Origin: an uncultured Bacilli bacterium
GTDB lineage: Bacteria > Bacillota_I > Bacilli_A > RF39 > UBA660
Direction: 5' to 3'
Assembly (NCBI GenBank): GCA_934182615.1
Contig: CAKPRO010000001.1
Location: 78,197 to 142,196 of the forward strand
Length of the DNA stretch: 64,000 nucleotides
Part shown: positions 23,704 to 56,677 of the stretch, piece by piece
Layout of the letters: each line of letters opens with the position of its first letter
Numbering within the stretch: the first letter of the stretch is position 1
Notes under the pieces: generated by a model
The model's input: only the letters and a program-made list of their open reading frames with translations
What the model was told of the DNA's origin: nothing
Database searches by the model: none
Position numbers and translations under genes: made by a program

Positions 23704-23920
23704 AAAAAAATAAGATAGCCAAAGGACGAATAAATATCCGCGGTACCACCTTATTTTATGTAACATACACTCATTAAGTTATAACGTAACAACCGTCTAT
23801 ACCTATTAGATATAAAAGCTCCAGAACCATTTATAATAACTTTCATTATCTATTTCCACCAACCATAGACTCTCTATAAACTAATATTATTACTCTTTCC
23901 TTCATCGCATTACGAAATTA
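23704..23920 (-). promoter_or_regulatory. T-box riboswitch leader (probable Met specifier) with terminator/antiterminator, controlling dut-metG
   Basis: Minus strand carries the canonical T-box sequence AATAAGGTGGTACCGCGG (plus 23735-23752), then a terminator helix and a U-run ending at the dut start. Stem I candidate has a GA motif (GCGATGAAGG), an AGAGA box and an AAUGA specifier-loop candidate. The leader is preceded upstream by a TTGTAA-17-TGgTAAAAT promoter. Confidence 0.6.
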
Positions 23921-33042: not shown

Positions 33043-34701
33043 TCATTTATATTCTATAATACTATCTCCTACTAAATCAATCAAATCATCAATAGAAGAT
33101 TTTTCTTTCTTATTATTATCATTATTTTCTATTTCCTTAACACTATATTTAATTCCTTTTTTTAAATCATCAATATATTTATTTTTAATAACCTTCCATT
33201 TATCATTATCAACAGCAACAGCATAAACTCTATTACCAAAAAGTCTTTCTAATAATTTCTCAGTAACTTCTAAATTACTATTAATTCTACTTGCTGTAGA
33301 TGGATAATTACAAGATAAAATTACATATTGACTTGCTCCAACCACTATATTAGAATCCTTAAGTAACCCAGAAACGACAGAAAATTCTTCATCATCAATA
33401 TAATCATCTAAACTATTCCATCTTAATTTAAACTCTTCTAATACACTCTTTGAAGCTAAAGCCAAAGAATTATTAACTCTAATTTCAACTTGTTCATCAG
33501 AAATAGAACTATCTTTTATTTCCCGGGAAATATTTTCATTATTTTGGGAAATATTTTTCTCTTTTTTCTCAATTATTTCCCGGGAAATAATTTTTTCACT
33601 ACTTTTCTCATTATTTACCATTAGATTTCCAAATTTTAAATCAGAATATTTAAGAATTGAAATCATAAATATAATTGAACTATGATTAGAAATCTTTATA
33701 GAATTTTGAACACCATTAAGGCTTTCTATTAAATCATATAAATCTTTATCATTATATTTATCAGAAACCAATTTGATATAATCGTTTTTAGTAGAAATAC
33801 TTGATAAAATATTAGCATTTTTATACAAAATAACATCTTTAAGAAAAATAAGCATTTCTTCAACAAACTTATTAATGTCTTTACCAGACTCATCTAAATA
33901 ATCAACAAATTCTATTAATTTAACCTTATTATTATTTTTAATATTATCTAATAATGTATAAAGTTCTTCATATGAAACCGAACCATTAACTTTATAAACA
34001 TCATCGATAGTAATATTATCATTAGAATAAGCTACCAATTGATCTAAAAAGTTTATAGCATCTCTCATTCCACCATCAGATAATCTTGCTATTTCATATA
34101 ATGCATCATCATCAATAGTAATATCTTCAAGATTAGAAATTTCTCTAAGTCTTTCCACTATTTTTTTATCATCAATCTTAGAAAATCTAAATTTTTGACA
34201 TCTTGAAGCTATAGTTAATGGTATTTTATGAGGCTCAGTCGTAGCTAAAATAAATATAACATGACTAGGAGGTTCCTCCAAAGTCTTTAAAAGTGCATTA
34301 AATGCTTGTGTTGTAAGCATATGAACTTCATCTATTATATAGACCTTATATTTAGAATTACTAGGAACTAAATTAATTTTATCCCTTAATTCTCTGATTT
34401 CATCAACACCATTATTCGAAGCAGCATCTATTTCAACAATATCATTACTATTCAAATAATTAAGACAATTATAACATTTCCCACATGGGTTACCATCAAC
34501 TAAATTTTCACAATTAACTAATCTTGCAATAATTTTAGCAATAGTAGTCTTTCCCGTTCCTCTAGGTCCACAAAAAAGATAAGCATGGGACACTTTTCCA
34601 GAAACAATAGCATTTTTAATAACAGTAACAACCTCTTCTTGTCCATAAACACTATTAAAATCAACAGGTCTATATTTTCTATACAAAGCTAAATATCCCA
34701 T
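33043..34701 (-). CDS. dnaX: DNA polymerase III subunits gamma/tau
   Basis: GPRGTGKTT Walker A, CGKCYNC zinc module and an SRC motif (TIASRCQ); 552 aa. The linker region contains two in-frame Noc-binding palindromes. Confidence 0.95.
   Translation of the reverse strand: MGYLALYRKYRPVDFNSVYGQEEVVTVIKNAIVSGKVSHAYLFCGPRGTGKTTIAKIIARLVNCENLVDGNPCGKCYNCLNYLNSNDIVEIDAASNNGVDEIRELRDKINLVPSNSKYKVYIIDEVHMLTTQAFNALLKTLEEPPSHVIFILATTEPHKIPLTIASRCQKFRFSKIDDKKIVERLREISNLEDITIDDDALYEIARLSDGGMRDAINFLDQLVAYSNDNITIDDVYKVNGSVSYEELYTLLDNIKNNNKVKLIEFVDYLDESGKDINKFVEEMLIFLKDVILYKNANILSSISTKNDYIKLVSDKYNDKDLYDLIESLNGVQNSIKISNHSSIIFMISILKYSDLKFGNLMVNNEKSSEKIISREIIEKKEKNISQNNENISREIKDSSISDEQVEIRVNNSLALASKSVLEEFKLRWNSLDDYIDDEEFSVVSGLLKDSNIVVGASQYVILSCNYPSTASRINSNLEVTEKLLERLFGNRVYAVAVDNDKWKVIKNKYIDDLKKGIKYSVKEIENNDNNKKEKSSIDDLIDLVGDSIIEYK
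33517..33599. promoter_or_regulatory. Two Noc-binding-site palindromes (TATTTCCCGGGAAATA) inside the dnaX coding sequence
   Basis: Exact 16-mers at 33517-33532 and 33584-33599, translated in frame as ...ISREI... / KIISREII in the tau linker. A TTGGGAAATAT half-site lies between them. Confidence 0.7.
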
Positions 34702-34748: not shown

Positions 34749-35177
34749 TCATTTTTTTCTCTTTTTTTTAAAAAAATCAGATAATATTTCAGAGCATTTA
34801 TTGCTTTTAATATAATTCAAAGAAACATATGGCTCTACAGTTGTTTTATTGTACATTTGTATGCCTTGTCTGATAGTGCCATAATAAATATTTTTAATTC
34901 TACTCTCCATAATAGCTCCAACACACATCATACAAGGCTCTAAAGTAACATATAAAGAGCAGTCATCTAACCTCCAACTCCCCAATTTTCGACACGCTCT
35001 GCTGATAGCCACTATCTCAGCATGCATTATAGCATCATTTTCCCTCTCTTTTTCATTGTATCCACAGGCGATGAGCTCATTTCCTCGAAATATGGCACAA
35101 CCAACAGGTATTTCATCCAAATTATAAGCAATTTTAGCTTGCTCAAAAGCCACTTCTAATTTATCAACATCCATCAT
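34749..35177 (-). CDS. tadA: tRNA-specific adenosine deaminase
   Basis: HAE and PC..C CMP/dCMP deaminase zinc motifs (HAEIVAI, EPCMMCVGA). Preferred start is the ATG at 35177, which has an AGAGGAGAAG RBS. The longer ORF to 35210 begins with MFHVEH, which is simply the parS palindrome read as codons. Confidence 0.85.
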   Translation of the reverse strand: MMDVDKLEVAFEQAKIAYNLDEIPVGCAIFRGNELIACGYNEKERENDAIMHAEIVAISRACRKLGSWRLDDCSLYVTLEPCMMCVGAIMESRIKNIYYGTIRQGIQMYNKTTVEPYVSLNYIKSNKCSEILSDFFKKKRKK

Positions 35178-35203
35178 AATATCTTCTCCTCTATGTTCCA
35201 CGT

Positions 35204-35968
35204 GGAACATAAAAAAATATTATCATAGTAATTATCAAATTTCAAAATATTATATTTTAAATTAAACAAAACATTTAAAAATCTCATGTTCCACGTGAAA
35301 CATTGATTGTTTTTTTATAATTAAATTTATTATTAATAATCATTAACAACAAAAATATAATAATAAAAGAATATAATTCAAAGATTACAAAAAAAATATA
35401 AATAGCTTTTTAAAATAAATAAAAATTGTTGATGAATTCATGTTCCACGTGAAACATTAAAATAATCATTTATCTAAAGCAAGTTATTATTAATTTCAAA
35501 TATACAAAAAATAATAATTAAAACATATAAAAATAAAATACGTAATAATTTAATTTGAAAATTATATAGGAAAAAGCTGTTGATAATCTATGTTCCACGT
35601 GAAACATAGAATTTACTTTCAAATTTTATTTAATATTTAATACATAAAACATTTCTAATCAACATAGTATTAAAAATTATTTCTATTAAATAATTTTTTT
35701 TATGGCTAATTTAATATATTTTTTACATATATTAATTAACTGTTGATAACCAATGTTCCACGTGGAACATGAGTTATTATTTTATAATTAAATTTGTTAT
35801 TAATAATCATTAATGAATAAAATACAATAATAAATATATATAATTCAAAAATCACATAACAAATATAAACGACTTTTAAAAATAAATAAAAAATTGTTGA
35901 TAACCAATGTTCCACGTGGAACATGAAGTTAGTTATCTAATTATTATTGCTATGTTTCACGTGAAACA
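35204..35968. repeat. Tandem array of seven parS (ParB/Spo0J centromere) sites, ~150-bp period, each unit with a DnaA-box-like TTATCAACA
   Basis: 16-mers at 35204-35219, 35287-35302, 35441-35456, 35591-35606, 35754-35769, 35908-35923, 35953-35968. Three are TGTTCCACGTGAAACA (exact B. subtilis consensus), three are the symmetric TGTTCCACGTGGAACA, one is fully palindromic TGTTTCACGTGAAACA. Spacers are paralogous AT-rich ~130-bp units ending in TGTTGATAA(CC). Confidence 0.8.
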
Positions 35969-36007
35969 TAGTATAATTTTAAATCTAATTTATCAACAGG
36001 CATAAAA

Positions 36008-36086
36008 AAAGATACACACACTAAATAAATGTTAAAGCTGCTGACTTCCGTCCCTGACTTGGTTCCATCATTTAATGTTGTATCAA
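36008..36086 (-). ncRNA. ffs: Small (4.5S-type) signal recognition particle RNA
   Basis: Minus strand contains CCAAGUCAGGGACGGAAGUCAGCAGC, matching the conserved SRP domain IV (AGGUCAGGUCCGGAAGGAAGCAGC). 5' and 3' ends can pair; a U-run lies at 36001-36010. A perfect promoter sits upstream. Confidence 0.6.
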
Positions 36087-36091
36087 CAAGT

Positions 36092-36120
36092 ATTATATAA
36101 CAATTAAAAAACATAGTCAA
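36092..36120 (-). promoter_or_regulatory. Sigma-A promoter of the SRP RNA (TTGACT-17-TATAAT)
   Basis: Minus strand TTGACT (plus 36115-36120), a 17-nt spacer and TATAAT (plus 36092-36097), about 7 nt before the predicted RNA 5' end. Confidence 0.55.
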
Positions 36121-36233
36121 TATAAGCAAATAAACATACAAATGTATGTTTATTTGCTTATAAACTATATATATTAAAGAATTTTATAAAATTAATAATT
36201 GCTTAATTGTGATTAAAATTTAGTAATAAAAAT

Positions 36234-36249
36234 TATTTCCCGGGAAATA
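36234..36249. promoter_or_regulatory. Noc-binding-site palindrome TATTTCCCGGGAAATA
   Basis: Exact 16-mer within an extended AATTATTTCCCGGGAAATAA, downstream of gyrA. Confidence 0.65.
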
Positions 36250-36254
36250 AAATA

Positions 36255-36288
36255 TAAAAATGAAGACACCAAGACTTCATTTTTTACA
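36255..36288 (-). terminator. Intrinsic terminator downstream of gyrA
   Basis: Minus strand AAAAATGAAGTCTTGGTGTCTTCATTTTTATATTTT: a GC-poor hairpin plus U-run. Confidence 0.45.
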
Positions 36289-36290
36289 TT

Positions 36291-36341
36291 AAAGACTACA
36301 GACTTTAATGTACACTGAGAGATATAATATAGCTCGAAGTG
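36291..36341 (-). repeat. REP-like ~50-nt element (copy a), directly 3' of the gyrA stop
   Basis: Minus-strand form CACTTCGAGCT...TCTCAGTGT...CATTAAAG-TCTGTAGT-CTTTAATG. Shares 5' motifs and a hairpin with conserved loop with the copies at 47452, 56438, 56594 and 61391. Confidence 0.6.
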
Positions 36342-36354
36342 AAAAAAAAGAAAG

Positions 36355-38883
36355 CTATTCACTTTCCTTTTCGATATTTTCACCATTAATATTATCATCA
36401 CTAACTTCTTCTCTATCAACAATAGAAGTAGAACTAACAATACTATCTTCTTTTAAATTAATAAGTTTAACACCTTGAGTAACTCTACTCATAGTAGAAA
36501 TCTTATCAACAGCCAATCTAATAATAATACCAGAATCAGTAATAATCATTAAGTCTTTACTATCATCAACTGTCTTAAATGACACAATAGAACCATTCTT
36601 TTCAGTAATATTAACAGTCTTAACACCTTTACCACCACGATTAGTAATTCTATATTCATCAACAGGTGTCTTCTTACCATAACCCTTTTCAGTAATAACA
36701 AGTACATACTCATTAGGTTCAACAATTTCCATACCAACAAGTATACCACCATCAAGATTAATACCTCTAACACCAGAAGCACTTCTACCCATAATTCTAA
36801 CAGCATCTTCATTAAATCTAACCATTCTACCATTAGAAGAAGCCATTAATATCTCATCATTGCCAGTAGTTTTCTTAACAGATACAAGTTCATCATCATC
36901 TTTTAAAGTAATAAACTTCTTACCATTATTCCTAATACTATCAAATTCAGATATATCAGTCCTTTTAATTAAACCACTTTTAGTAGCAAATACCAAACAC
37001 TTGTATTCATCATTATTAGATATCTTCAATAAAGAAGTAACCTTTTCATCTTTATCTAAAGATAATAAATTAATAATAGGTAATCCTTTAGATTGTCTAC
37101 TGTACTCAGGAATCTCATAACCCTTAATTCTATATACTTTACCCTTATTAGTAAACATAAGAATATAATCATGACTAGTCGCATTAATCAAATGCTCTAC
37201 AAAATCCTCTTCATTAGTAGCCATACCTTTAACACCCATACCACCTCTATTTTGAGTTTTATAAGTATCAGCAGGTAATCTCTTAATATAACCCTTATTA
37301 GTTAAAGTAATAACAACATTCTCAACAGGAATCAAAGATTCATCTTCAATATAATCAATAGCAGTCATATCAATATGTGTTCTTCTCTCATCAGCATATT
37401 TATCTTTAATTTCAAGCATTTCAGTCTTAATAACCTCAAGAATCTTCTCTTCACTAGCTAATATTTCTTCTAATTCCTTAACTAATTTTTCAAGTTCAGC
37501 AATCTCTTCTTCAATCTTAGATTTTTCAAGTCCAGTAAGTCTCTTCAATCTCATATCAAGAATAGCTTGAGATTGAACCTCTGATAAAGCAAAATTAGAC
37601 ATAAGTCCAGCTTTAGCCTCATCGTCATCAGCAGACTCTCTAATAATCTTAATAACTCTATCAATATTATCAAGAGCAATCTTTAAACCATCTAATATAT
37701 GTAATCTATCCTTATATCTCTTTAAATCAAATTGACATCTACGATAAATAACATGTTTCTGATGATCAATATACTTCTCAATAATCTCTCTTAAACCAAG
37801 TGTTCTAGGACTTCCATCCACAAGCATTAAGAAATTAATACCATAAGAAGTCTGAAGTTGCGTATGCTTATATAAGTTATTTAAAACAACATTAGCATTA
37901 GCCTCTTTCTTAACATCAATAACAATCTTAATACCCTCTAAAGCCGATTCATCACTTAAATTAGAAATACCATCAATAACCTTATCTCTAACAAGTTCAC
38001 CAATTCTTTGAATCAAAGCCTTCTTATTAACCTGATATGGAAGCTCTGTAATAACGATTCTGTGCTTATTATGAGTCTCTTCTACAGTAGCCATACCTCT
38101 AATAGTAATAGCTCCTCTACCGCTCTCATATGCCCTTTTAATGCCACTATTACCAAGAATAACACCAGCAGTAGGAAAATCAGGTCCCTTAATATATTGC
38201 ATAAGTTCAGTAACAGTAATCTCTGGATTATCAATATAAGCAACACATCCATCAATAACTTCACCTAAATTATGTGGTGGAATATTAGTAGCCATACCAA
38301 CAGCAATACCCATATTACCATTAACTAATATATTAGGAAATCTACTAGGTAATACAACAGGCTCTTTTCTCTGACCATCATAATTCTCCGAAAAATCAAC
38401 AGTATCCTTATTTAAATCTCTTAAAAGTTCCATCGATATCTTAGCAAGTCTAGCCTCAGTATAACGACTAGCAGCTGCTCCATCACCATCAATAGAACCA
38501 AAATTACCATGTCCATCAACAAGTGTATGTCGATAAGTAAAGTCTTGAGCCATTCTAACCATAGATTCATAAATAGCAGAATCACCATGTGGATGATAAT
38601 GACCCATAACAGCACCAACAGCATTAGCAGATTTCTGATATTTCTTATCAGGAGTCATACCCTCTTCATATAAAGTATATAAAATTCTTCTATGAACAGG
38701 CTTAAGACCATCTCTAACATCAGGAAGAGCTCTAGCAACAATAACACTCATTGAATAATCAAGGAAAGACTTCCTCATTTCACCAACAATATTAACTGCT
38801 ACTTTTCTATCTCTCTCATGATTATTATCTTCACCCATATCTTCTATATTCAAATTTTTATCTACATTCTTATCTTCCATCAT
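36355..38883 (-). CDS. gyrA: DNA gyrase subunit A
   Basis: 842 aa with the active-site Tyr region, a QRDR-like segment and C-terminal beta-pinwheel repeats. Confidence 0.97.
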
Positions 38884-40826: not shown

Positions 40827-41927
40827 TCAAATTATTTCCCGGGAAATAATTTTACCATTTTCTATTCTATAAACATTAGCTTTATTTCTCACATTTTTAT
40901 CAATATTTTCAATATCCGTAGTAGTAACTATCGTTTGAATATCATTATCTAAATATTTAATTACCTTATTTCTCTTATCAATATCTAATTCACTAAATAT
41001 ATCATCCAAAAGTAAAATAGGCGTATCAGACAAAACATCCGTAAATAATTTAACTTCTGCTAACTTAAGAGCAAGTACAGCACTCCTTATTTGTCCCTGT
41101 GAACCATATAAAGATAAATTCTTTCCATTCAAATCAAAATAAAAATCATCTCTATTAGGTCCAATAAAAGTAATCTTATACTGAATTTCTCTTGATAAAT
41201 TACTTTTAAGTTTATCTTTAAATAAATTATTATCTAAATTACTAACATTAGAAGTATATATCATCTTAAGTCCTTCTAATCCTGTAATAGAACTAAATAT
41301 ATCATCTATATATTTATTAACTAAGTCTACATATTTCCTTCTAAAATTATAAATAACTATTGATAAACCAATATATTTATCATTAAGAATATCTAAATAA
41401 TTCATATCACTCTCTTTATTAATATTAATAATCTTCAAAAATTCATTTCTTTGACGTAAAACTAAATTATAATTATTTAAATTTGCTAAATAAATCTTAT
41501 TAATTTGACTAATTTGAATATTAAAGTATTTTCTTCTACAAGATGGACTATCTTTAAATATTCTAATACTATCACTACTAAAAAGAATAACATTCATTTT
41601 AGAAATATAGTCACTTAATTTTTTGATCTCTTTTTTATTTATCTTAACAACCTTACCATTCTCATTAATTAATAGTTCAAGTTCATCATAAGAACCATTA
41701 TAATCAACAATTCCTTTAATCATTGAATATCTACTATTAAAATTAATAAGATTCTTATCACTAATAGATAAAAAAGACTTCGTAACAGCAAGTACATAAA
41801 TAGATTCTAGTAAATTAGTTTTTCCTTGAGCATTATCTCCTATTATAATATTTAAATTATTATTAAATTCTAATAAAATATCATCATAATTACGATAATT
41901 TTTTAAATAAATTTTTTGTAATTTCAA
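40827..41927 (-). CDS. recF: DNA replication and repair protein RecF
   Basis: GDNAQGKTNLLE Walker A and an ABC signature; 366 aa. The last eight codons (KIISREII) and the TGA stop are supplied by a Noc-binding palindrome. Confidence 0.95.
   Translation of the reverse strand: MKLQKIYLKNYRNYDDILLEFNNNLNIIIGDNAQGKTNLLESIYVLAVTKSFLSISDKNLINFNSRYSMIKGIVDYNGSYDELELLINENGKVVKINKKEIKKLSDYISKMNVILFSSDSIRIFKDSPSCRRKYFNIQISQINKIYLANLNNYNLVLRQRNEFLKIININKESDMNYLDILNDKYIGLSIVIYNFRRKYVDLVNKYIDDIFSSITGLEGLKMIYTSNVSNLDNNLFKDKLKSNLSREIQYKITFIGPNRDDFYFDLNGKNLSLYGSQGQIRSAVLALKLAEVKLFTDVLSDTPILLLDDIFSELDIDKRNKVIKYLDNDIQTIVTTTDIENIDKNVRNKANVYRIENGKIISREII
40833..40848. promoter_or_regulatory. Noc-binding-site palindrome forming the recF 3' end (part of a 29-bp repeat identical to 53707-53735)
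   Basis: CAAATTATTTCCCGGGAAATAATTTTACC at 40827-40855 is identical to 53707-53735. Confidence 0.7.
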
Positions 41928-42053: not shown

Positions 42054-42509
42054 TTATTTTTCAACGGTTTTTCTCATAATTCCATTTAAATATTTTTCTA
42101 TCTTTATACACTTCGTAATTTGATTATCAATCGTAGTATAAGGTACCTTAATATTCATCTCTTTACCATTATCAAAATATATTTTTGTACCATTACTTTC
42201 TTTAACATATCTAGTAATATTATTATAAGCAAGCCATATACATTTCTTAGAACTAGGAGTACATGTAGGAAAGAAAATAATCATATTATAAGAAGATACA
42301 ATAATAGGAGTCTTAATATAATAATTAAAAATATCAATAACAAATTGCCTCTGAATATTATAAGAATTACCATAAAAATTACACCCATATTTAAGTAATT
42401 TAAGACAATCAATACTCAAATAAAAATCCTTATTCTTCTCCACAACATAAGTACCATATCCATTAGAAGTAAAGCACAAAACATCATCAGTAAGAATATA
42501 ATTTCTCAT
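42054..42509 (-). CDS. comK: ComK family protein (competence transcription factor family)
   Basis: Alignable to B. subtilis ComK across the conserved core: CNFYGNSY / CRFFGSSY; KTPIIVSSYNMIIFFPT / KPPIMVDPSNQIFLFPT; FDNGKEMNIKVPY / FSNGKTMELPISY. The start is assigned to the ATG at 42509, which has a GGAGAGGGGGA RBS. Confidence 0.7.
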   Translation of the reverse strand: MRNYILTDDVLCFTSNGYGTYVVEKNKDFYLSIDCLKLLKYGCNFYGNSYNIQRQFVIDIFNYYIKTPIIVSSYNMIIFFPTCTPSSKKCIWLAYNNITRYVKESNGTKIYFDNGKEMNIKVPYTTIDNQITKCIKIEKYLNGIMRKTVEK

Positions 42510-42707
42510 AAAATCCCCCTCTCCACATATAAAAATATGTACCATGTATTAAAGCATATAATCATGTCGAATTTTATCAAAATATGTCGTAAATTATCAA
42601 AAATTTTCCTTTTCTTAACATTTCTATCATCAAAATTACTGTTTTATCACAAAAAAAATAGATAAAAGAATCAAATCCCTTATCTATTAAACAAATATAA
42701 ATCAAAA

Positions 42708-43832: not shown

Positions 43833-43974
43833 CCTCTTTCTTTTATTATTTATTTATTATATTATTATTATTATGCTGTGGATATTGTGGAAAACTCACC
43901 TTTACCCTTGTTTTATATACTTTTACTTATCCACAATACCTGTTGATAACTTCAAACTTTTCCACTATCAACAA
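43833..43974. other. oriC part 2 (dnaA-dnaN spacer): DnaA-box cluster plus AT-rich unwinding element
   Basis: Perfect TTATCCACA at 43927-43935. Variants: ATATCCACA (43878-43886, reverse), TTTTCCACA (43887-43895, reverse), TTATCAACA (43941-43949, reverse), CTATCAACA (43965-43973). A pure A/T run at 43840-43875 lies next to the dnaN start. Confidence 0.8.
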
Positions 43975-45345
43975 CTATATTCTCTTTTTTAACTCCTCAA
44001 TTACTGTTTGTAACTGATAATTTGTCTCTAAATCTTTCTCTATTTTTTGATATGCACTTATTATTGTTGAGTGGTCTCTACCTCCAAAGTAAGTTCCCAT
44101 CTTTGGATATGACTCATTTGTCATTATTCTACACAAGTATATAGCTATTTGCCGCTGATAGTTTATATCCTTACTTCTTTTTTTACCTTTTAAATCTTCA
44201 ATATCTATCTTAAAGTACTCACAGACAATTCTCTGAATCCTATGAATATCATTTTTATATACACTACGTTCACTAATTTTATCTTTTAAAGCCTCAATAG
44301 CAATATCTAAAGTAACAACTCCATGATTCATCATTAGTGCATAAGCAAAAACCCTTGTAATTGCTCCTTCTAACTGTCTAACATCGGAATCATTAATATT
44401 AGCAATATACTCAATGACTTCAATCGGAATATCTTCCGCTGCCTCCTGATGAGATATCTTCCTTTTAATAATATCTACTCTCAGTCCAAAATCAGGTGGA
44501 GTGATATTAGCAGTAAGACCCCAATTAAACCTTGTAATAAGCCTATTTTCTAACATCTTTAAATCATCAACAGACCTGTCGGAAGCTATAATAATTTGTT
44601 TATTTGAGTCATGTAACTGATTAAAAGTATGGAAGAATTCTTCTTGTCCTTTAGTAGCGGACCCTAAAAATTGAATATCATCAATAATTAGAACATCAAT
44701 ATTCCTATACTTATTCTTAAAAGAATCAATCTTATCAAAACTATTCTTCTCATTATTTCTAACCGCCGCTATATAATCATTAACAAACTGTTCACTTGAC
44801 ACATACAAAACCTTCTTATTCGTATTTTGAATAATATAATTACCAATAGCATGCATTAAATGTGTTTTACCAAGTCCACTTTTACCATATAAAAATAAAG
44901 GATTATAAGCTTTACCAGGTTTTTCCGCCACCGCTCTAGCAGCAGTAAAAGCAAACCTATTCGAGTTACCTACAATAAAACTATCAAAAGTATATTCGCT
45001 ATTTAGATTAGCGGAAGCACTAGTTTGATGTGGAACTCCCATACTTTCATTAGAAGTACCAATAATAACCTCTTCATTATTATCACTAATTTCATTAATT
45101 TCGTTTTCTAAAATAAATTTAAAATTAAAATTTGTTCCCGTAATAGAATTAAAAGTTTCTTCAATATCATCAATATAATTTTCTTCTAAATGTTTTTTAT
45201 GTAAAGCTAAAGGAACGATAATAGTGGCAGTACCACCATCTAATTTATATAATTTAGTATCCTTAAACCAAGTATCATAAGATAAAGGAGTAATACGTTC
45301 TTTAATTTTATCAAGAAATTCATTCCATAAATTATCCGTATTCAT
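43975..45345 (-). CDS. dnaA: Chromosomal replication initiator protein DnaA
   Basis: 456 aa with an AAA+ domain (GKSGLGKTHLMHAIGN) and a C-terminal DnaA-box binding domain. Confidence 0.97.
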   Translation of the reverse strand: MNTDNLWNEFLDKIKERITPLSYDTWFKDTKLYKLDGGTATIIVPLALHKKHLEENYIDDIEETFNSITGTNFNFKFILENEINEISDNNEEVIIGTSNESMGVPHQTSASANLNSEYTFDSFIVGNSNRFAFTAARAVAEKPGKAYNPLFLYGKSGLGKTHLMHAIGNYIIQNTNKKVLYVSSEQFVNDYIAAVRNNEKNSFDKIDSFKNKYRNIDVLIIDDIQFLGSATKGQEEFFHTFNQLHDSNKQIIIASDRSVDDLKMLENRLITRFNWGLTANITPPDFGLRVDIIKRKISHQEAAEDIPIEVIEYIANINDSDVRQLEGAITRVFAYALMMNHGVVTLDIAIEALKDKISERSVYKNDIHRIQRIVCEYFKIDIEDLKGKKRSKDINYQRQIAIYLCRIMTNESYPKMGTYFGGRDHSTIISAYQKIEKDLETNYQLQTVIEELKKRI

Positions 45346-45439: not shown

Positions 45440-45580
45440 CAAGTTATCCACAACTTATCAACAATATAATACCATATAAAATAAGACTTTAAAAGACTTT
45501 TCCACAATTTTTGTCAATTTTTGTTGTCAACAGTCAACAGCTTTACTTTTCCACAGCCCTGTGGATATTGTGGATAAATA
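45440..45580. other. oriC part 1 (upstream of dnaA): DnaA-box cluster
   Basis: TTATCCACA at 45445-45453 and 45569-45577 (reverse); TTATCAACA at 45455-45463; TTTTCCACA at 45498-45506 and 45547-45555; ATATCCACA at 45560-45568 (reverse). Confidence 0.8.
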
Positions 45581-45609: not shown

Positions 45610-47370
45610 CTAGTTACTTTTCCACTGTATCATCCACTTGTCAAATATTTTAGCATTTGTACTCTGTGGTTCTGGATTAGGAAGTTGCATTTTTACAATA
45701 AGTGGAATCTTCATCATCTTACCAAATGCAACACAAGTACCAGATTGAAGTGATTTTTGTTTTTCAATAACATCACTACTAATATTAGGAACCATCTTTT
45801 CAATATACTCTAAATCACTAGGATGGTTAATTTTAAATATTAAGAAATTACTACACTGTGATAAAACAGTTTCAGATAGTTCAGTAGGTCTTTGCGTAAT
45901 TAAATCAAGACATATACCAAATTTTCTACCTTCTTTAGCAATTCTTTCAAATATATTATATCCAAGAATATTAATATCATTATCCTTCTGAACATATCTA
46001 TGAGCCTCCTCTAGCATAAGATGCATTGGCATACTACCTCTAGTAGGAAGCTTTTTAGCAAAGTTAAAGATAATTCTTGCATATACTTTAACAAGAGCTT
46101 TAGCAAATCTATCATCAATATTTTCTAATACAAAATTAATAATTTGTGCTCTCTTATTATTACTCACTAATATTAAATCAGAAATAAATTCATTTACAGT
46201 AATAAACTTATCACATTCAAAATACTTTCTCATAGAACTATTAGCAATAGTATGTAATTTAACTTTTAAAGCTGTAGCTTCAGCATAAGATTTCTCATTA
46301 AGAAGAAGTCCTTCAGATATTAATGTAAAGTTAAGAGCTACTTCTAAATCGTCAATTGTAAAGAAAGTAGGTACATAATCCTCATTCCATTTAGTTTCAT
46401 TATCGACAAACTTCTTAATATATTCAGTAATAAGAATTCTTTCTACAAATTGCCCTTGACTATCAATTTCAAAACATTTTCTAAAAGTTCTAGTATAACC
46501 AACACCAGGTACTTCAACATCTAAGTTAAGTTCAGGTGTATGACAATCAGTCAAAATAGAAAATATTTGGTCTCTAATTCTAGCAGATACTTGATTAGAA
46601 TACATAACTGATACAATAGCGGATGCAATTAAATGGTTTTTATATCTATTAGATTCCTCATCATTTTTAGCAAATAAAGAAACATAAGCAAGCATCTTTT
46701 CAATAATCATAATTTGTGAATAATCAGTTACATCAAGTATATTAGCATAATCATCAACAGAAAGTAACCATAAAGGTAATTTAAGAATATTAACTCCCTT
46801 ATCAGTATCAGTGCTAAACATCTTGTAATTAAAATTATAATTATAACTAGAAATACTACTAAAAGCACTATCATATTCATCAGTATTATTAAATATAAAA
46901 ATAATACTATTAAAAGGAATATAATTAGGCATAGTAAATAAATTTTGTACTAATCTAGCAACACCATAAGTTTTACCAGAACCAGTATTACCAAAAATAG
47001 CACTATGATTGCTCCACATATCATCAATATTAATTTTAATAGGGCTATCGTTATACAAAGGAGAAAGTCCTAGCATCATTGCAGTATTGTCATTATACCC
47101 AGTAAGTTCTGCTAATTCATCAGCATTAATAATTCTAATTTTAGAATTAATACTAGGTTTTCTAATAATACCATCATAAAATTTGCTTCCATGAAATTCT
47201 CCTAAAAAACTAATTTTAGCCTCTCCGTTCATAATTTCTTCTACTTCACCTAATATTTTTTTATTATTTTCTTCAAAAACAACATTTAAGTTAAGTAAAT
47301 CATCAGTAATAACATTATCAATTTTAACAATAGCATAATTTTTACTGATAGCAATAATTTCTTTAAACAT
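45610..47370 (-). CDS. HerA/FtsK-like (DUF87) P-loop ATPase with N-terminal HAS-barrel-like region, solitary
   Basis: Walker A AIFGNTGSGKTYG, Walker B LMLEEAH, and the GICLDLITQRP arginine-finger segment typical of HerA-type ATPases. Start assigned to the ATG at 47370, which has an AAGAAGGG RBS. Confidence 0.7.
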   Translation of the reverse strand: MFKEIIAISKNYAIVKIDNVITDDLLNLNVVFEENNKKILGEVEEIMNGEAKISFLGEFHGSKFYDGIIRKPSINSKIRIINADELAELTGYNDNTAMMLGLSPLYNDSPIKINIDDMWSNHSAIFGNTGSGKTYGVARLVQNLFTMPNYIPFNSIIFIFNNTDEYDSAFSSISSYNYNFNYKMFSTDTDKGVNILKLPLWLLSVDDYANILDVTDYSQIMIIEKMLAYVSLFAKNDEESNRYKNHLIASAIVSVMYSNQVSARIRDQIFSILTDCHTPELNLDVEVPGVGYTRTFRKCFEIDSQGQFVERILITEYIKKFVDNETKWNEDYVPTFFTIDDLEVALNFTLISEGLLLNEKSYAEATALKVKLHTIANSSMRKYFECDKFITVNEFISDLILVSNNKRAQIINFVLENIDDRFAKALVKVYARIIFNFAKKLPTRGSMPMHLMLEEAHRYVQKDNDINILGYNIFERIAKEGRKFGICLDLITQRPTELSETVLSQCSNFLIFKINHPSDLEYIEKMVPNISSDVIEKQKSLQSGTCVAFGKMMKIPLIVKMQLPNPEPQSTNAKIFDKWMIQWKSN

Positions 47371-47451
47371 AATCGCCCTTCTTTCTATTCTAAGTAAATT
47401 ATACCAAATAAATATCAAAAAATAAATAACTTTTTAATAATTTTTTAGAGT

Positions 47452-53711: not shown

Positions 53712-53727
53712 TATTTCCCGGGAAATA
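53712..53727. promoter_or_regulatory. Noc-binding-site palindrome immediately 3' of polA (29-bp copy identical to the recF 3' end)
   Basis: CAAATTATTTCCCGGGAAATAATTTTACC at 53707-53735. Confidence 0.7.
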
Positions 53728-56414: not shown

Positions 56415-56677
56415 TATTTCCCAGGAAATAATTTATTAGTTCGAATCTACGTTTCTCACTATCATTAAAGCCTAATGTCTTTAATGAAAAATATGAAGCC
56501 TATAAAAATAGTCTTCATATTTAACAACATTTTTAATTTAGGTATTATTTTATATAATATTTATTCATTAAAATAACAAAAAACACTTTAAATAAAGACT
56601 ACAGGCTTTATTTAACAGTGAGAGATTACAAGCTCGAACTGAAAAAAAATATTTCCCAAATTATTTCCCGGGAAATA
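56415..56677. repeat. REPIN-like composite: Noc site + REP-like copy b (plus orientation), ~105-bp spacer, REP-like copy c (inverted) + Noc site
   Basis: TATTTCCCAGGAAATA at 56415-56430 (1 mismatch); REP-like 56438-56483; inverted REP-like 56594-56641; TATTTCCCGGGAAATA at 56662-56677 plus an ATATTTCCCAAA half-site. Lies in the polA-polC intergenic region. Confidence 0.65.

Follow-up and report, generated by a model that had tools for sequence, protein, structure and literature searches.

Seven clustered parS sites paired with DnaA-box variants in the gyrA-tadA spacer of a human-gut Bacilli species: a probable chromosomal centromere

The 64-kb stretch of DNA considered here (hereafter the window; part of contig CAKPRO010000001.1 from an uncultured Bacilli bacterium) carries a compact array of seven parS-type sites, the presumptive loading sites of the segregation protein ParB (Spo0J). 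All seven 16-mers fit TGTTNCACGTGNAACA and fall within 35194-35968, a 775-bp stretch between the gene for the small signal recognition particle (SRP) RNA and a tadA-like gene. The gene order around the array, dnaA-dnaN-(comK-like)-recF-gyrB-gyrA-SRP RNA-array-tadA-dnaX-ybaB-recR, followed by bofA and holB, is similar to that of Bacillus subtilis, and the surrounding genes are all on the minus strand (dnaA at 43975-45345, gyrA at 36355-38883). A first-pass annotation of this DNA had placed a seven-site parS array between tadA and the SRP RNA gene, and the Rfam and NCBIfam matches bear out this placement. Its limits needed correction, since the array starts 10 bp earlier (35194, not 35204), spans 775 rather than 765 bp, and begins 16 nt, not about 27 bp, from the tadA start codon. 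The sites and the two genes that bound them are listed below.

34749..35177, minus strand: tadA-like CDA-fold deaminase of 142 aa, the downstream boundary; best NCBIfam match TadA, below the curated cut-off
35194..35968, no strand: whole parS array, seven sites in 775 bp, from the motif search
35194..35209, no strand: parS1, TGTTCCACGTGGAACA, 16 nt upstream of the tadA ATG (35177), over the predicted 5' untranslated region
35287..35302, no strand: parS2, TGTTCCACGTGAAACA, from the motif search
35441..35456, no strand: parS3, TGTTCCACGTGAAACA, from the motif search
35591..35606, no strand: parS4, TGTTCCACGTGAAACA, from the motif search
35754..35769, no strand: parS5, TGTTCCACGTGGAACA, from the motif search
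35908..35923, no strand: parS6, TGTTCCACGTGGAACA, from the motif search
35953..35968, no strand: parS7, TGTTTCACGTGAAACA, at the center of a 22-bp palindrome, CTATGTTTCACGTGAAACATAG
36003..36089, minus strand: gene for the small SRP RNA (53 bits in Rfam), which bounds the array upstream; a T7 tail is at its 3' end

The sites were located by searching both strands of the whole window for TGTTNCACGTGAAACA with up to two mismatches, using dinucleotide-preserving shuffles as background. Fourteen strand-matches (seven sites, each read on both strands) were found against 0.04 expected, and none of 100 shuffles reached 14, which places the clustering far beyond chance. The exact B. subtilis form TGTTNCACGTGAAACA occurs at four of the seven sites (35287, 35441, 35591, and 35953). 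The other three (35194, 35754, and 35908) read TGTTCCACGTGGAACA and differ by a single symmetric A12G change that creates a perfect palindrome, as had been described earlier. At each of the seven sites, the palindrome is really 18 bp long, ATGTTNCACGTGNAACAT (ATGTT.CACGTG.AACAT). Start-to-start intervals measure 93, 154, 150, 163, 154, and 45 bp; the proposed periodicity of ~150 bp is therefore seen in four of the six intervals (150-163 bp) and fails for those of 93 and 45 bp. Whether the motif is a generic repeat, a concern raised with the original description, was examined through the same search. Matches with up to two mismatches are absent from the rest of the window, the 10 kb past its right end hold no parS either, and a dispersed repeat of the repetitive extragenic palindrome (REP) or miniature inverted-repeat transposable element (MITE) type is rejected, as no copy lies outside 35194-35968 in the window.

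The spacers between the sites were thought to be mutually paralogous and the array to be a product of unit duplication. This applies to a single pair of long spacers (35303-35440 and 35770-35907), which are 79% identical (z = 13-14 relative to shuffles). Similarity between the remaining long-spacer pairs is at the level of shuffles once the 16 nt adjoining the downstream parS are removed, and paralogy of all spacers is consequently rejected. Tandem Repeats Finder did not report the array because its spacers are too diverged; the repeats were resolved with gapless repeat families and direct motif search. Common to all long units is YTGTTGATRA; it stops 4-5 nt short of the following parS and accompanies four internal sites on their tadA side. 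Apart from parS, the DnaA-box variant TGTTGATAA is the sole conserved element of the units. A permissive Rfam search of 35100-36400 yielded the SRP RNA and chance microRNA matches, and no RNA gene signal in the array. An AT-rich hairpin at 36120-36163 gave rise to these spurious microRNA matches.

The window (~27% GC) contains the sporulation genes spoIID, spoVT, and bofA, and exact matches to its GyrB, RecR, and SufD proteins come from human-gut metagenomes, Hadza samples included. A conspecific set of 19 distinct gut-metagenome contigs (20 loci, L121-L140) allows the array to be compared between strains. It occupies the identical slot in all 19 contigs and holds 7, 8, 9, or 10 sites, in keeping with the suggestion that copy number might vary among relatives; one contig (L125) reproduces the architecture of the window exactly. 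Internal units are gained or lost, and the edge intervals are constant in all strains, at 45 bp on the SRP side and 93 bp on the tadA side. The recurrence of 8-site and 10-site architectures across independent samples argues against assembly artefacts. Within the species there are three unit classes of ~150, 154, and 163 bp that have only parS and YTGTTGATRA in common. All 14 specified parS bases are intact in 176 of 178 sites, the seven of the window included, and variation in parS is limited to 5 and 12, the two positions at which changes are tolerated. The deaminase is also 142 aa long in the conspecific contigs.

Dense arrays of this kind are not confined to one species. When 185,579 species genomes were scanned for triplets of parS with 120-150 nt between neighbors (136-166-bp intervals), a search that gives neither frequencies nor spacing preferences, arrays of three or more sites came up in at least 120 loci from at least 117 species. 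Together with a published stretch in Myxococcus xanthus, this result speaks against the array being an unusual architecture. The matches listed hold 3-40 parS sites each, with periods from 35 bp up, and come from Bacillota, Patescibacteria, Acidobacteriota, Actinomycetota, Planctomycetota, Spirochaetota, Alpha-, Beta-, and Gammaproteobacteria, and others. Also among the matches listed, a ParB homologue is encoded within 8 kb of the array in 37 of the loci outside the gyrA-tadA slot, which indicates that the scan pattern does find real centromeres. The gyrA-(SRP)-array-tadA-dnaX slot itself is occupied by a parS array in ~30 other Bacilli-type species among the matches listed, whose GyrA proteins are 60-79% identical to that of the window. 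Their same-slot arrays have periods of 36, 40, 46, 55, 74-76, or ~100-190 bp and spacers that cannot be aligned with those of the window. Slot and motif are conserved in this clade, and array architecture is not. A functional constraint on the ~150-bp period is rejected, given that same-slot relatives use 36-190 bp.

Two oddities emerged from the same scan. The Hyphomicrobiales chromosome OZ245032.1, a metagenome-assembled genome (MAG), carries three parS arrays at 0.41, 2.16, and 3.19 Mb (L012, L024, and L097), each with 8-9 sites at a 49-50-bp period; three separate arrays are unusual for a centromere motif. Three further loci (L034, L070, and L117) are labelled as Methanobacteriaceae archaeon or Muribaculaceae yet show Bacilli-type gyrB-gyrA-array-tadA-dnaX synteny and 27-28% GC, and they are probably mis-binned MAG contigs.

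The comparisons across strains and species bear on whether the array could lack a chromosomal function altogether, as a generic or selfish repeat, the remnant of a centromere from an integrated phage or plasmid, or an artefact of assembly. Such an origin would fit the differences in copy number between strains and a 15-nt direct repeat that brackets the array (described below) and could mark an old insertion or duplication. However, the flanks are core housekeeping genes, the slot is conserved in ~30 species among the matches listed, and every conspecific contig has the array, across independent samples and assemblers. Spacers decay around invariant parS cores, no dispersed copies occur in the window, and the scan pattern is matched by only three of 2.9 million viral contigs. 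Core-gene flanks, presence in all conspecific contigs, and the three viral matches lead us to reject a plasmid or phage centromere or a mobile element, and this explanation as a whole is largely refuted and highly improbable.

A second explanation concerns gene regulation. The palindromes could be operators for the tadA-dnaX-ybaB-recR operon, or act in SRP RNA termination, with ParB (as repressor or roadblock) or an unrelated palindrome-binding factor as the regulator. The 16 nt between parS1 and the tadA ATG contain a GGAG ribosome-binding site, and parS1 lies downstream of the following candidate promoter, which would put it at about +1 to +16, on the tadA 5' untranslated region.

35217..35245, minus strand: candidate sigma-70-type promoter for tadA-dnaX, TTGAAA-17-TGnTAATAT, a weak consensus match

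An operator role is also consistent with the array edges, as both the 93- and 45-bp intervals are fixed in all strains and the interior is variable. Precedent comes from Pseudomonas aeruginosa, in which ParB represses promoters overlapping parS3 and parS4 (PMC7022226). However, one operator would suffice, and 7-10 of them over 0.8-1.2 kb are unneeded for regulation. The same motif forms arrays beside parB in many phyla. Moreover, promoter-like matches in the AT-rich array stretch occur at background frequency (20 found and 17 expected), and the candidate promoter is therefore a lead only. Regulation of the adjoining genes is accordingly improbable as the function of the array.

The array also contains DnaA boxes, and most internal parS sites are each paired with one, a feature that the first-pass annotation missed. 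The box TGTGGATAA is the reverse complement of TTATCCACA, and the variant TGTTGATAA is the reverse complement of TTATCAACA. The boxes in and beside the array are as follows.

35155..35169, plus strand: left copy of the 15-nt direct repeat, within tadA codons 2-7; holds TTATCAACA (35161-35169)
35427..35435, minus strand: weak DnaA-box-like 9-mer TGTTGATGA, 2 mismatches to TGTGGATAA; 5 nt before parS3
35578..35586, minus strand: DnaA-box variant TTATCAACA (TGTTGATAA on the plus strand), 1 mismatch; 4 nt before parS4
35741..35749, minus strand: DnaA-box variant, 1 mismatch; 4 nt before parS5; the 11-mer CTGTTGATAAC is the same as in the dnaA-dnaN spacer
35895..35903, minus strand: DnaA-box variant, 1 mismatch; 4 nt before parS6
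35990..35998, plus strand: DnaA-box variant TTATCAACA, 21 nt beyond parS7, inside the right copy of TCTAATTTATCAACA (35984-35998)

Five boxes with one mismatch to TTATCCACA and one with two mismatches are found within 35161-35998, and the edge copies of TTATCAACA (35161-35169 and 35990-35998) are oriented opposite to the internal boxes. In the whole window, TTATCAACA occurs 15 times (1.9 expected). The six copies that are non-coding all belong either to the array region or to one of the two DnaA-box clusters beside dnaA, and at 43941 and 45455 TTATCAACA adjoins consensus TTATCCACA boxes.

Identical copies of the 15-nt direct repeat TCTAATTTATCAACA, at 35155-35169 and 35984-35998, enclose the array. 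The right copy comes after the T7 tail of the SRP RNA gene, and its minus strand resembles a relic tadA start (ATGCCTGTTGATAAATTAGA). This repeat may be a trace of array insertion or expansion.

Pairing of boxes with parS extends to related arrays. In a divergent relative with the same GyrB (L127), TGTGGATAG, TGTTGATAA, TGTGGACAA, and TGTGGAAAA precede successive parS sites at the same offset. Each is a different single-mismatch variant, and the consensus of the four is TGTGGATAA. Other lineages show a mirrored layout, with parS-N1-9-TGTGGAWAA in L014, L018, and L081 and TTATCAACA-N2-3-parS in L032, L025, and L006; the perfect box TGTGGATAA is found in L014. Across 34 loci, a box with at most one mismatch starts 0-8 nt from parS in 31 of 482 distinct flanks (0.64 expected), and 12 of the 34 loci show the pairing (0.63 expected), where the expectation derives from the box rate in the spacers of the same arrays. 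The box-parS pairing is, by these sequence counts, statistically solid. The idea that TGTTGATAA is a mere duplicated piece of the tadA start is rejected; the internal boxes run the other way, and in L127 other DnaA-box variants take their place. Since the motif flanking parS is a DnaA-box variant, the array is very probably also a DnaA-box cluster, which would hold DnaA beside ParB.

This dual composition raises the possibility that the array serves mainly in the control of replication initiation, as a DnaA-box cluster merged with a Spo0J platform, by which DnaA would be titrated or brought within reach of Soj/Spo0J regulation. Such an element would fuse two components that are synergistic in B. 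subtilis, where cells deleted for both spo0J and six DnaA-box clusters over-initiate severely (PMC3245932). The pairing of box variants with parS is conserved across diverged unit classes and lineages, and the same variant is present in the DnaA-box clusters flanking dnaA. In Caulobacter crescentus, DnaA binds boxes in the parS region, according to a review's account of that work (Mera 2014, reviewed in PMC6399470). On the other hand, two thirds of the same-slot related arrays have no box, short-period arrays (36-76 bp) have no room for one, and a one-mismatch box at close offset accompanies only three of the seven window sites. Initiation control as the main role is possible and, on this evidence, rather unlikely.

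A further ParB-family motif is present nearby. The 16-mer TATTTCCCGGGAAATA is the Noc-binding-site (NBS) consensus reported by Wu et al. (2009) and Jalal et al. (2020). Exact copies lie at 33517-33532, 33574-33589, 36234-36249, 40833-40848, 53712-53727, and 56662-56677, and a copy with one mismatch at 56415-56430. Six exact copies and one near-copy in 64 kb (0.02 expected) amount to about one per 10 kb; B. subtilis has ~70 NBS in 4.2 Mb. Two of the copies, at 33517 and 33574, are 57 bp apart inside dnaX, and the positions of TATTTCCCGGGAAATA are conserved in the conspecific contigs. The copy closest to the array is given here.

36234..36249, no strand: exact TATTTCCCGGGAAATA in the gyrA-SRP RNA spacer, 266 bp away from parS7

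The array sites themselves are parS and not NBS. Exact NBS lie separately from parS, so that in this organism the ParB-family motifs are two different ones. Among the matches listed, NBS are present in 20 of 32 Bacilli-group loci as compared to none of 88 others, in agreement with a published report that noc is confined to Firmicutes (PMC7383237). The two motifs are interspersed in some relatives. Nine parS and nine NBS alternate strictly with a 74-75-bp period in L052 (7098-7750), a similar alternation occurs in L078 (7-480), the gyrA-tadA array of L040 (999-1200) has alternating parS and NBS, and L014 (4759-5700) is built of units of parS, DnaA box, and NBS. A tentative extension of these observations is that this gut Bacilli clade turned the gyrA-tadA spacer into a modular docking strip, with units of a ParB site and a DnaA box (in the window, L127, L014, L018, L081, L032, and L025) and in some species a Noc site. 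Segregation, initiation control, and nucleoid occlusion or membrane tethering could then be coupled at one fast-evolving locus; we regard this as possible, though less likely than not.

Taken as a whole, the sequence evidence makes it very likely that this stretch serves a human-gut Bacilli species as a chromosomal centromere, with seven ParB (Spo0J) loading sites densely clustered in a dnaA-proximal part of the chromosome. The near-invariance of the parS cores across strains and species while spacers turn over supports this reading. The canonical, clustered, and conserved nature of the parS sites thus sustains the centromere originally proposed; the unusual architecture, full unit duplication, and distance to oriC that were part of that proposal fared less well. 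The anatomy of the array, its conservation, its variation in copy number, and its spread across genomes can be read directly from sequence, and we infer ParB and DnaA binding, clamp loading, and SMC recruitment, along with any effect on tadA-dnaX transcription or replication initiation.

The centromere would operate as follows. Each 16-bp parS would capture a ParB dimer, which on binding CTP would shut as a clamp and slide onto the flanking DNA, freeing parS for the next dimer. Seven sites in 775 bp would provide a high clamp-loading rate from effectively one point; the loaded clamps would recruit ParA and SMC and build a single large partition complex that serves segregation by ParA and the loading of SMC. 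A greater number of parS sites raises the clamp-loading rate, and in vitro DNA is condensed with 7, 13, or 26 parS and not with 1-4 (PMC8299390). Seven to ten sites in ~1 kb may also act as a single strong loading point, sparing SMC the collisions that sites set far apart would be expected to cause (PMC8357415). The array would grow and shrink by gain and loss of ~100-165-bp units, with constraint acting on the parS cores and the short flanking motif only. The DnaA boxes would hold DnaA directly beside ParB. DnaA might thereby be titrated, as it is by the DnaA-box clusters of B. subtilis (PMC3245932), or it might have a role at the centromere, as the review describes for Caulobacter (Mera 2014 via PMC6399470). 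Because bound proteins are roadblocks to the sliding of ParB clamps (PMC8299390), a one-sided block of sliding toward tadA-dnaX could also result.

Several observations weigh against this interpretation or parts of it. The first concerns the cognate proteins. Pfam scans of 30 open reading frames and a tblastn search with an approximate B. subtilis Spo0J query found no parB, parA, soj, or noc in the window, nor are they in the fetched conspecific loci. With no parB in the window, we infer binding by a cognate ParB. Further parS sites may also exist elsewhere in the genome. The boxes are open to two objections. The variant is also common within genes, as nine of the 15 copies of TTATCAACA are coding. 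In addition, the box is absent from about two thirds of related arrays, including all short-period ones and those of the closest other species (L119 and L044), which implies that it is not essential to the array. As for copy number, two conspecific contigs have N gaps inside the array, and some of the differences could be short-read assembly errors.

The remaining objections concern the origin. The array was initially put ~8 kb from oriC. DnaA-box clusters do lie on both sides of dnaA (43877-43949 and 45444-45577), as in a bipartite Firmicute oriC, at 7.9-9.6 kb from the array. However, GC skew is negative across the whole window and the 10 kb past its right end (L142), with no inversion at dnaA, and the distance to oriC is hence unproven. 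GC3 skew, in a plus-strand reading of genes of both strands, also keeps one sign across the window and 10 kb beyond. Right of dnaA, the polC, polA, sigA, and suf genes share the minus strand with the genes to its left, and replication that started at dnaA would meet polC, polA, and sigA head-on. Judged in this way, forks pass dnaA from right to left and the active origin is further right, so that the array may lie tens of kb from it. There are published cases of gut bacteria in which the origin is not marked by dnaA (PMC10197239).

Dense chromosomal parS arrays are already documented, and as a parS cluster the window array is ordinary. In M. xanthus, 22-24 parS sites lie upstream of parAB, 22 of which are in a ParB-bound fragment of 3.12 kb (PMC3899335; PMC3778016). 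Like the window array, this stretch consists of canonical 16-bp parS arranged head to tail, with a spacing of ~100-150 bp, in one non-coding stretch near the origin region (a putative placement in the window), and its consensus TGTTCCACGTGGAACG is nearly the same. In contrast, the M. xanthus stretch adjoins parAB, whereas the window has no parB in 64 kb and its slot is gyrA-SRP RNA-tadA. M. xanthus is also a proteobacterium with a high-GC genome, and DnaA-box pairing is unreported for its stretch. Plasmid centromere arrays, such as the twelve 43-bp repeats of F plasmid sopC, similarly consist of tandem ParB-family sites that act as one centromere. They differ in having plasmid-specific motifs beside a par operon on a mobile replicon, whereas the window has the universal chromosomal parS among core genes. 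Corynebacterium glutamicum (10 parS) and most bacteria have redundant parS near the origin that form one ParB/SMC loading zone, as those of the window may do, but clusters of the C. glutamicum type span 5-40 kb with genes between the sites instead of one intergenic stretch below 1 kb (PMC7083940; PMC8357415).

Among the Bacilli, B. subtilis has the identical 16-mer TGTTNCACGTGAAACA (exact at four window sites), NBS, and the gene order dnaA-dnaN-recF-gyrB-gyrA ... dnaX-ybaB-recR. Its 8-10 parS are single and scattered over ~0.75 Mb, in contrast to seven in 775 bp in the window. Clustered parS are the rule, and the scattered layout is restricted to a few lineages that include Bacilli (PMC8357415). 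B. subtilis also has DnaA-box clusters outside oriC that are, like the boxes of the window, intergenic and composed of boxes with at most one mismatch. These clusters are origin-proximal, as the window array may be, and interact genetically with Spo0J in initiation control (Okumura et al., PMC3245932). There, DnaA-box clusters and parS are at separate loci, whereas in the window they are interleaved in one array. The presence of DnaA boxes within the parS region of C. crescentus, suggesting that the initiator acts at the centromere, is a further likeness (Mera 2014, reviewed in PMC6399470). In Caulobacter, however, DnaA binding and a segregation role are experimentally demonstrated, as the review relates (PMC6399470). 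As far as that account goes, the Caulobacter boxes are not arranged one per parS in a repeating unit, and the organism belongs to another phylum with a different polar anchoring biology.

Full-text literature searches returned no description of the gyrA-tadA slot in a gut Bacilli clade, of strain-level variation in array copy number, or, above all, of units of parS and DnaA box, with NBS in relatives. The DnaA-box pairing may point to an intrinsic coupling of segregation with replication control. The array corrects the impression, based on B. subtilis, that Bacilli always scatter their parS. A fixed slot in ~30 listed species, fast turnover of architecture, and strain-level copy-number variation provide a natural experiment on how many parS a centromere needs. 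In B. subtilis and Caulobacter, crosstalk between initiation, segregation, and division has been studied via separate loci. Should DnaA and Noc indeed bind the arrays, this clade hard-wires such crosstalk, and the arrays would be compact natural substrates for the behavior of ParB clamps next to bound neighbors. Dense parS arrays are also easy markers of the centromere region in MAGs and may outdo dnaA, which is off the skew switch here.

Other features of the neighborhood deserve mention. The SRP RNA gene has a near-consensus promoter, TTGACT-17-TATAAT, at 36120..36092. Between this promoter and the NBS, a perfect 36-nt AT-rich palindrome, AAGCAAATAAACATACAAATGTATGTTTATTTGCTT, at 36126-36161 is probably the gyrA terminator hairpin. 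A ComK-family open reading frame (42054-42545, minus strand; Pfam PF06338, E = 1.6e-26) lies between dnaN and recF in all conspecific contigs; in Bacilli, this gap usually holds the small yaaA/rlbA gene. Directly upstream of dnaA, in place of rpmH-rnpA, is a HerA/FtsK-like ATPase (45610-47418, minus strand; DUF87) with weak matches to anti-phage HerA models, followed by LtaS-like sulfatase, GT2, and TmcAL genes. In one conspecific strain (L141, 18375-20677), an AraC-like regulator and a TraG/type IV secretion system coupling protein come after polC, where the window has polA, which probably reflects the integration of a conjugative element close to dnaA. Finally, a T-box leader (23719-23914, minus strand; 113 bits) lies upstream of a dUTPase-metG pair.

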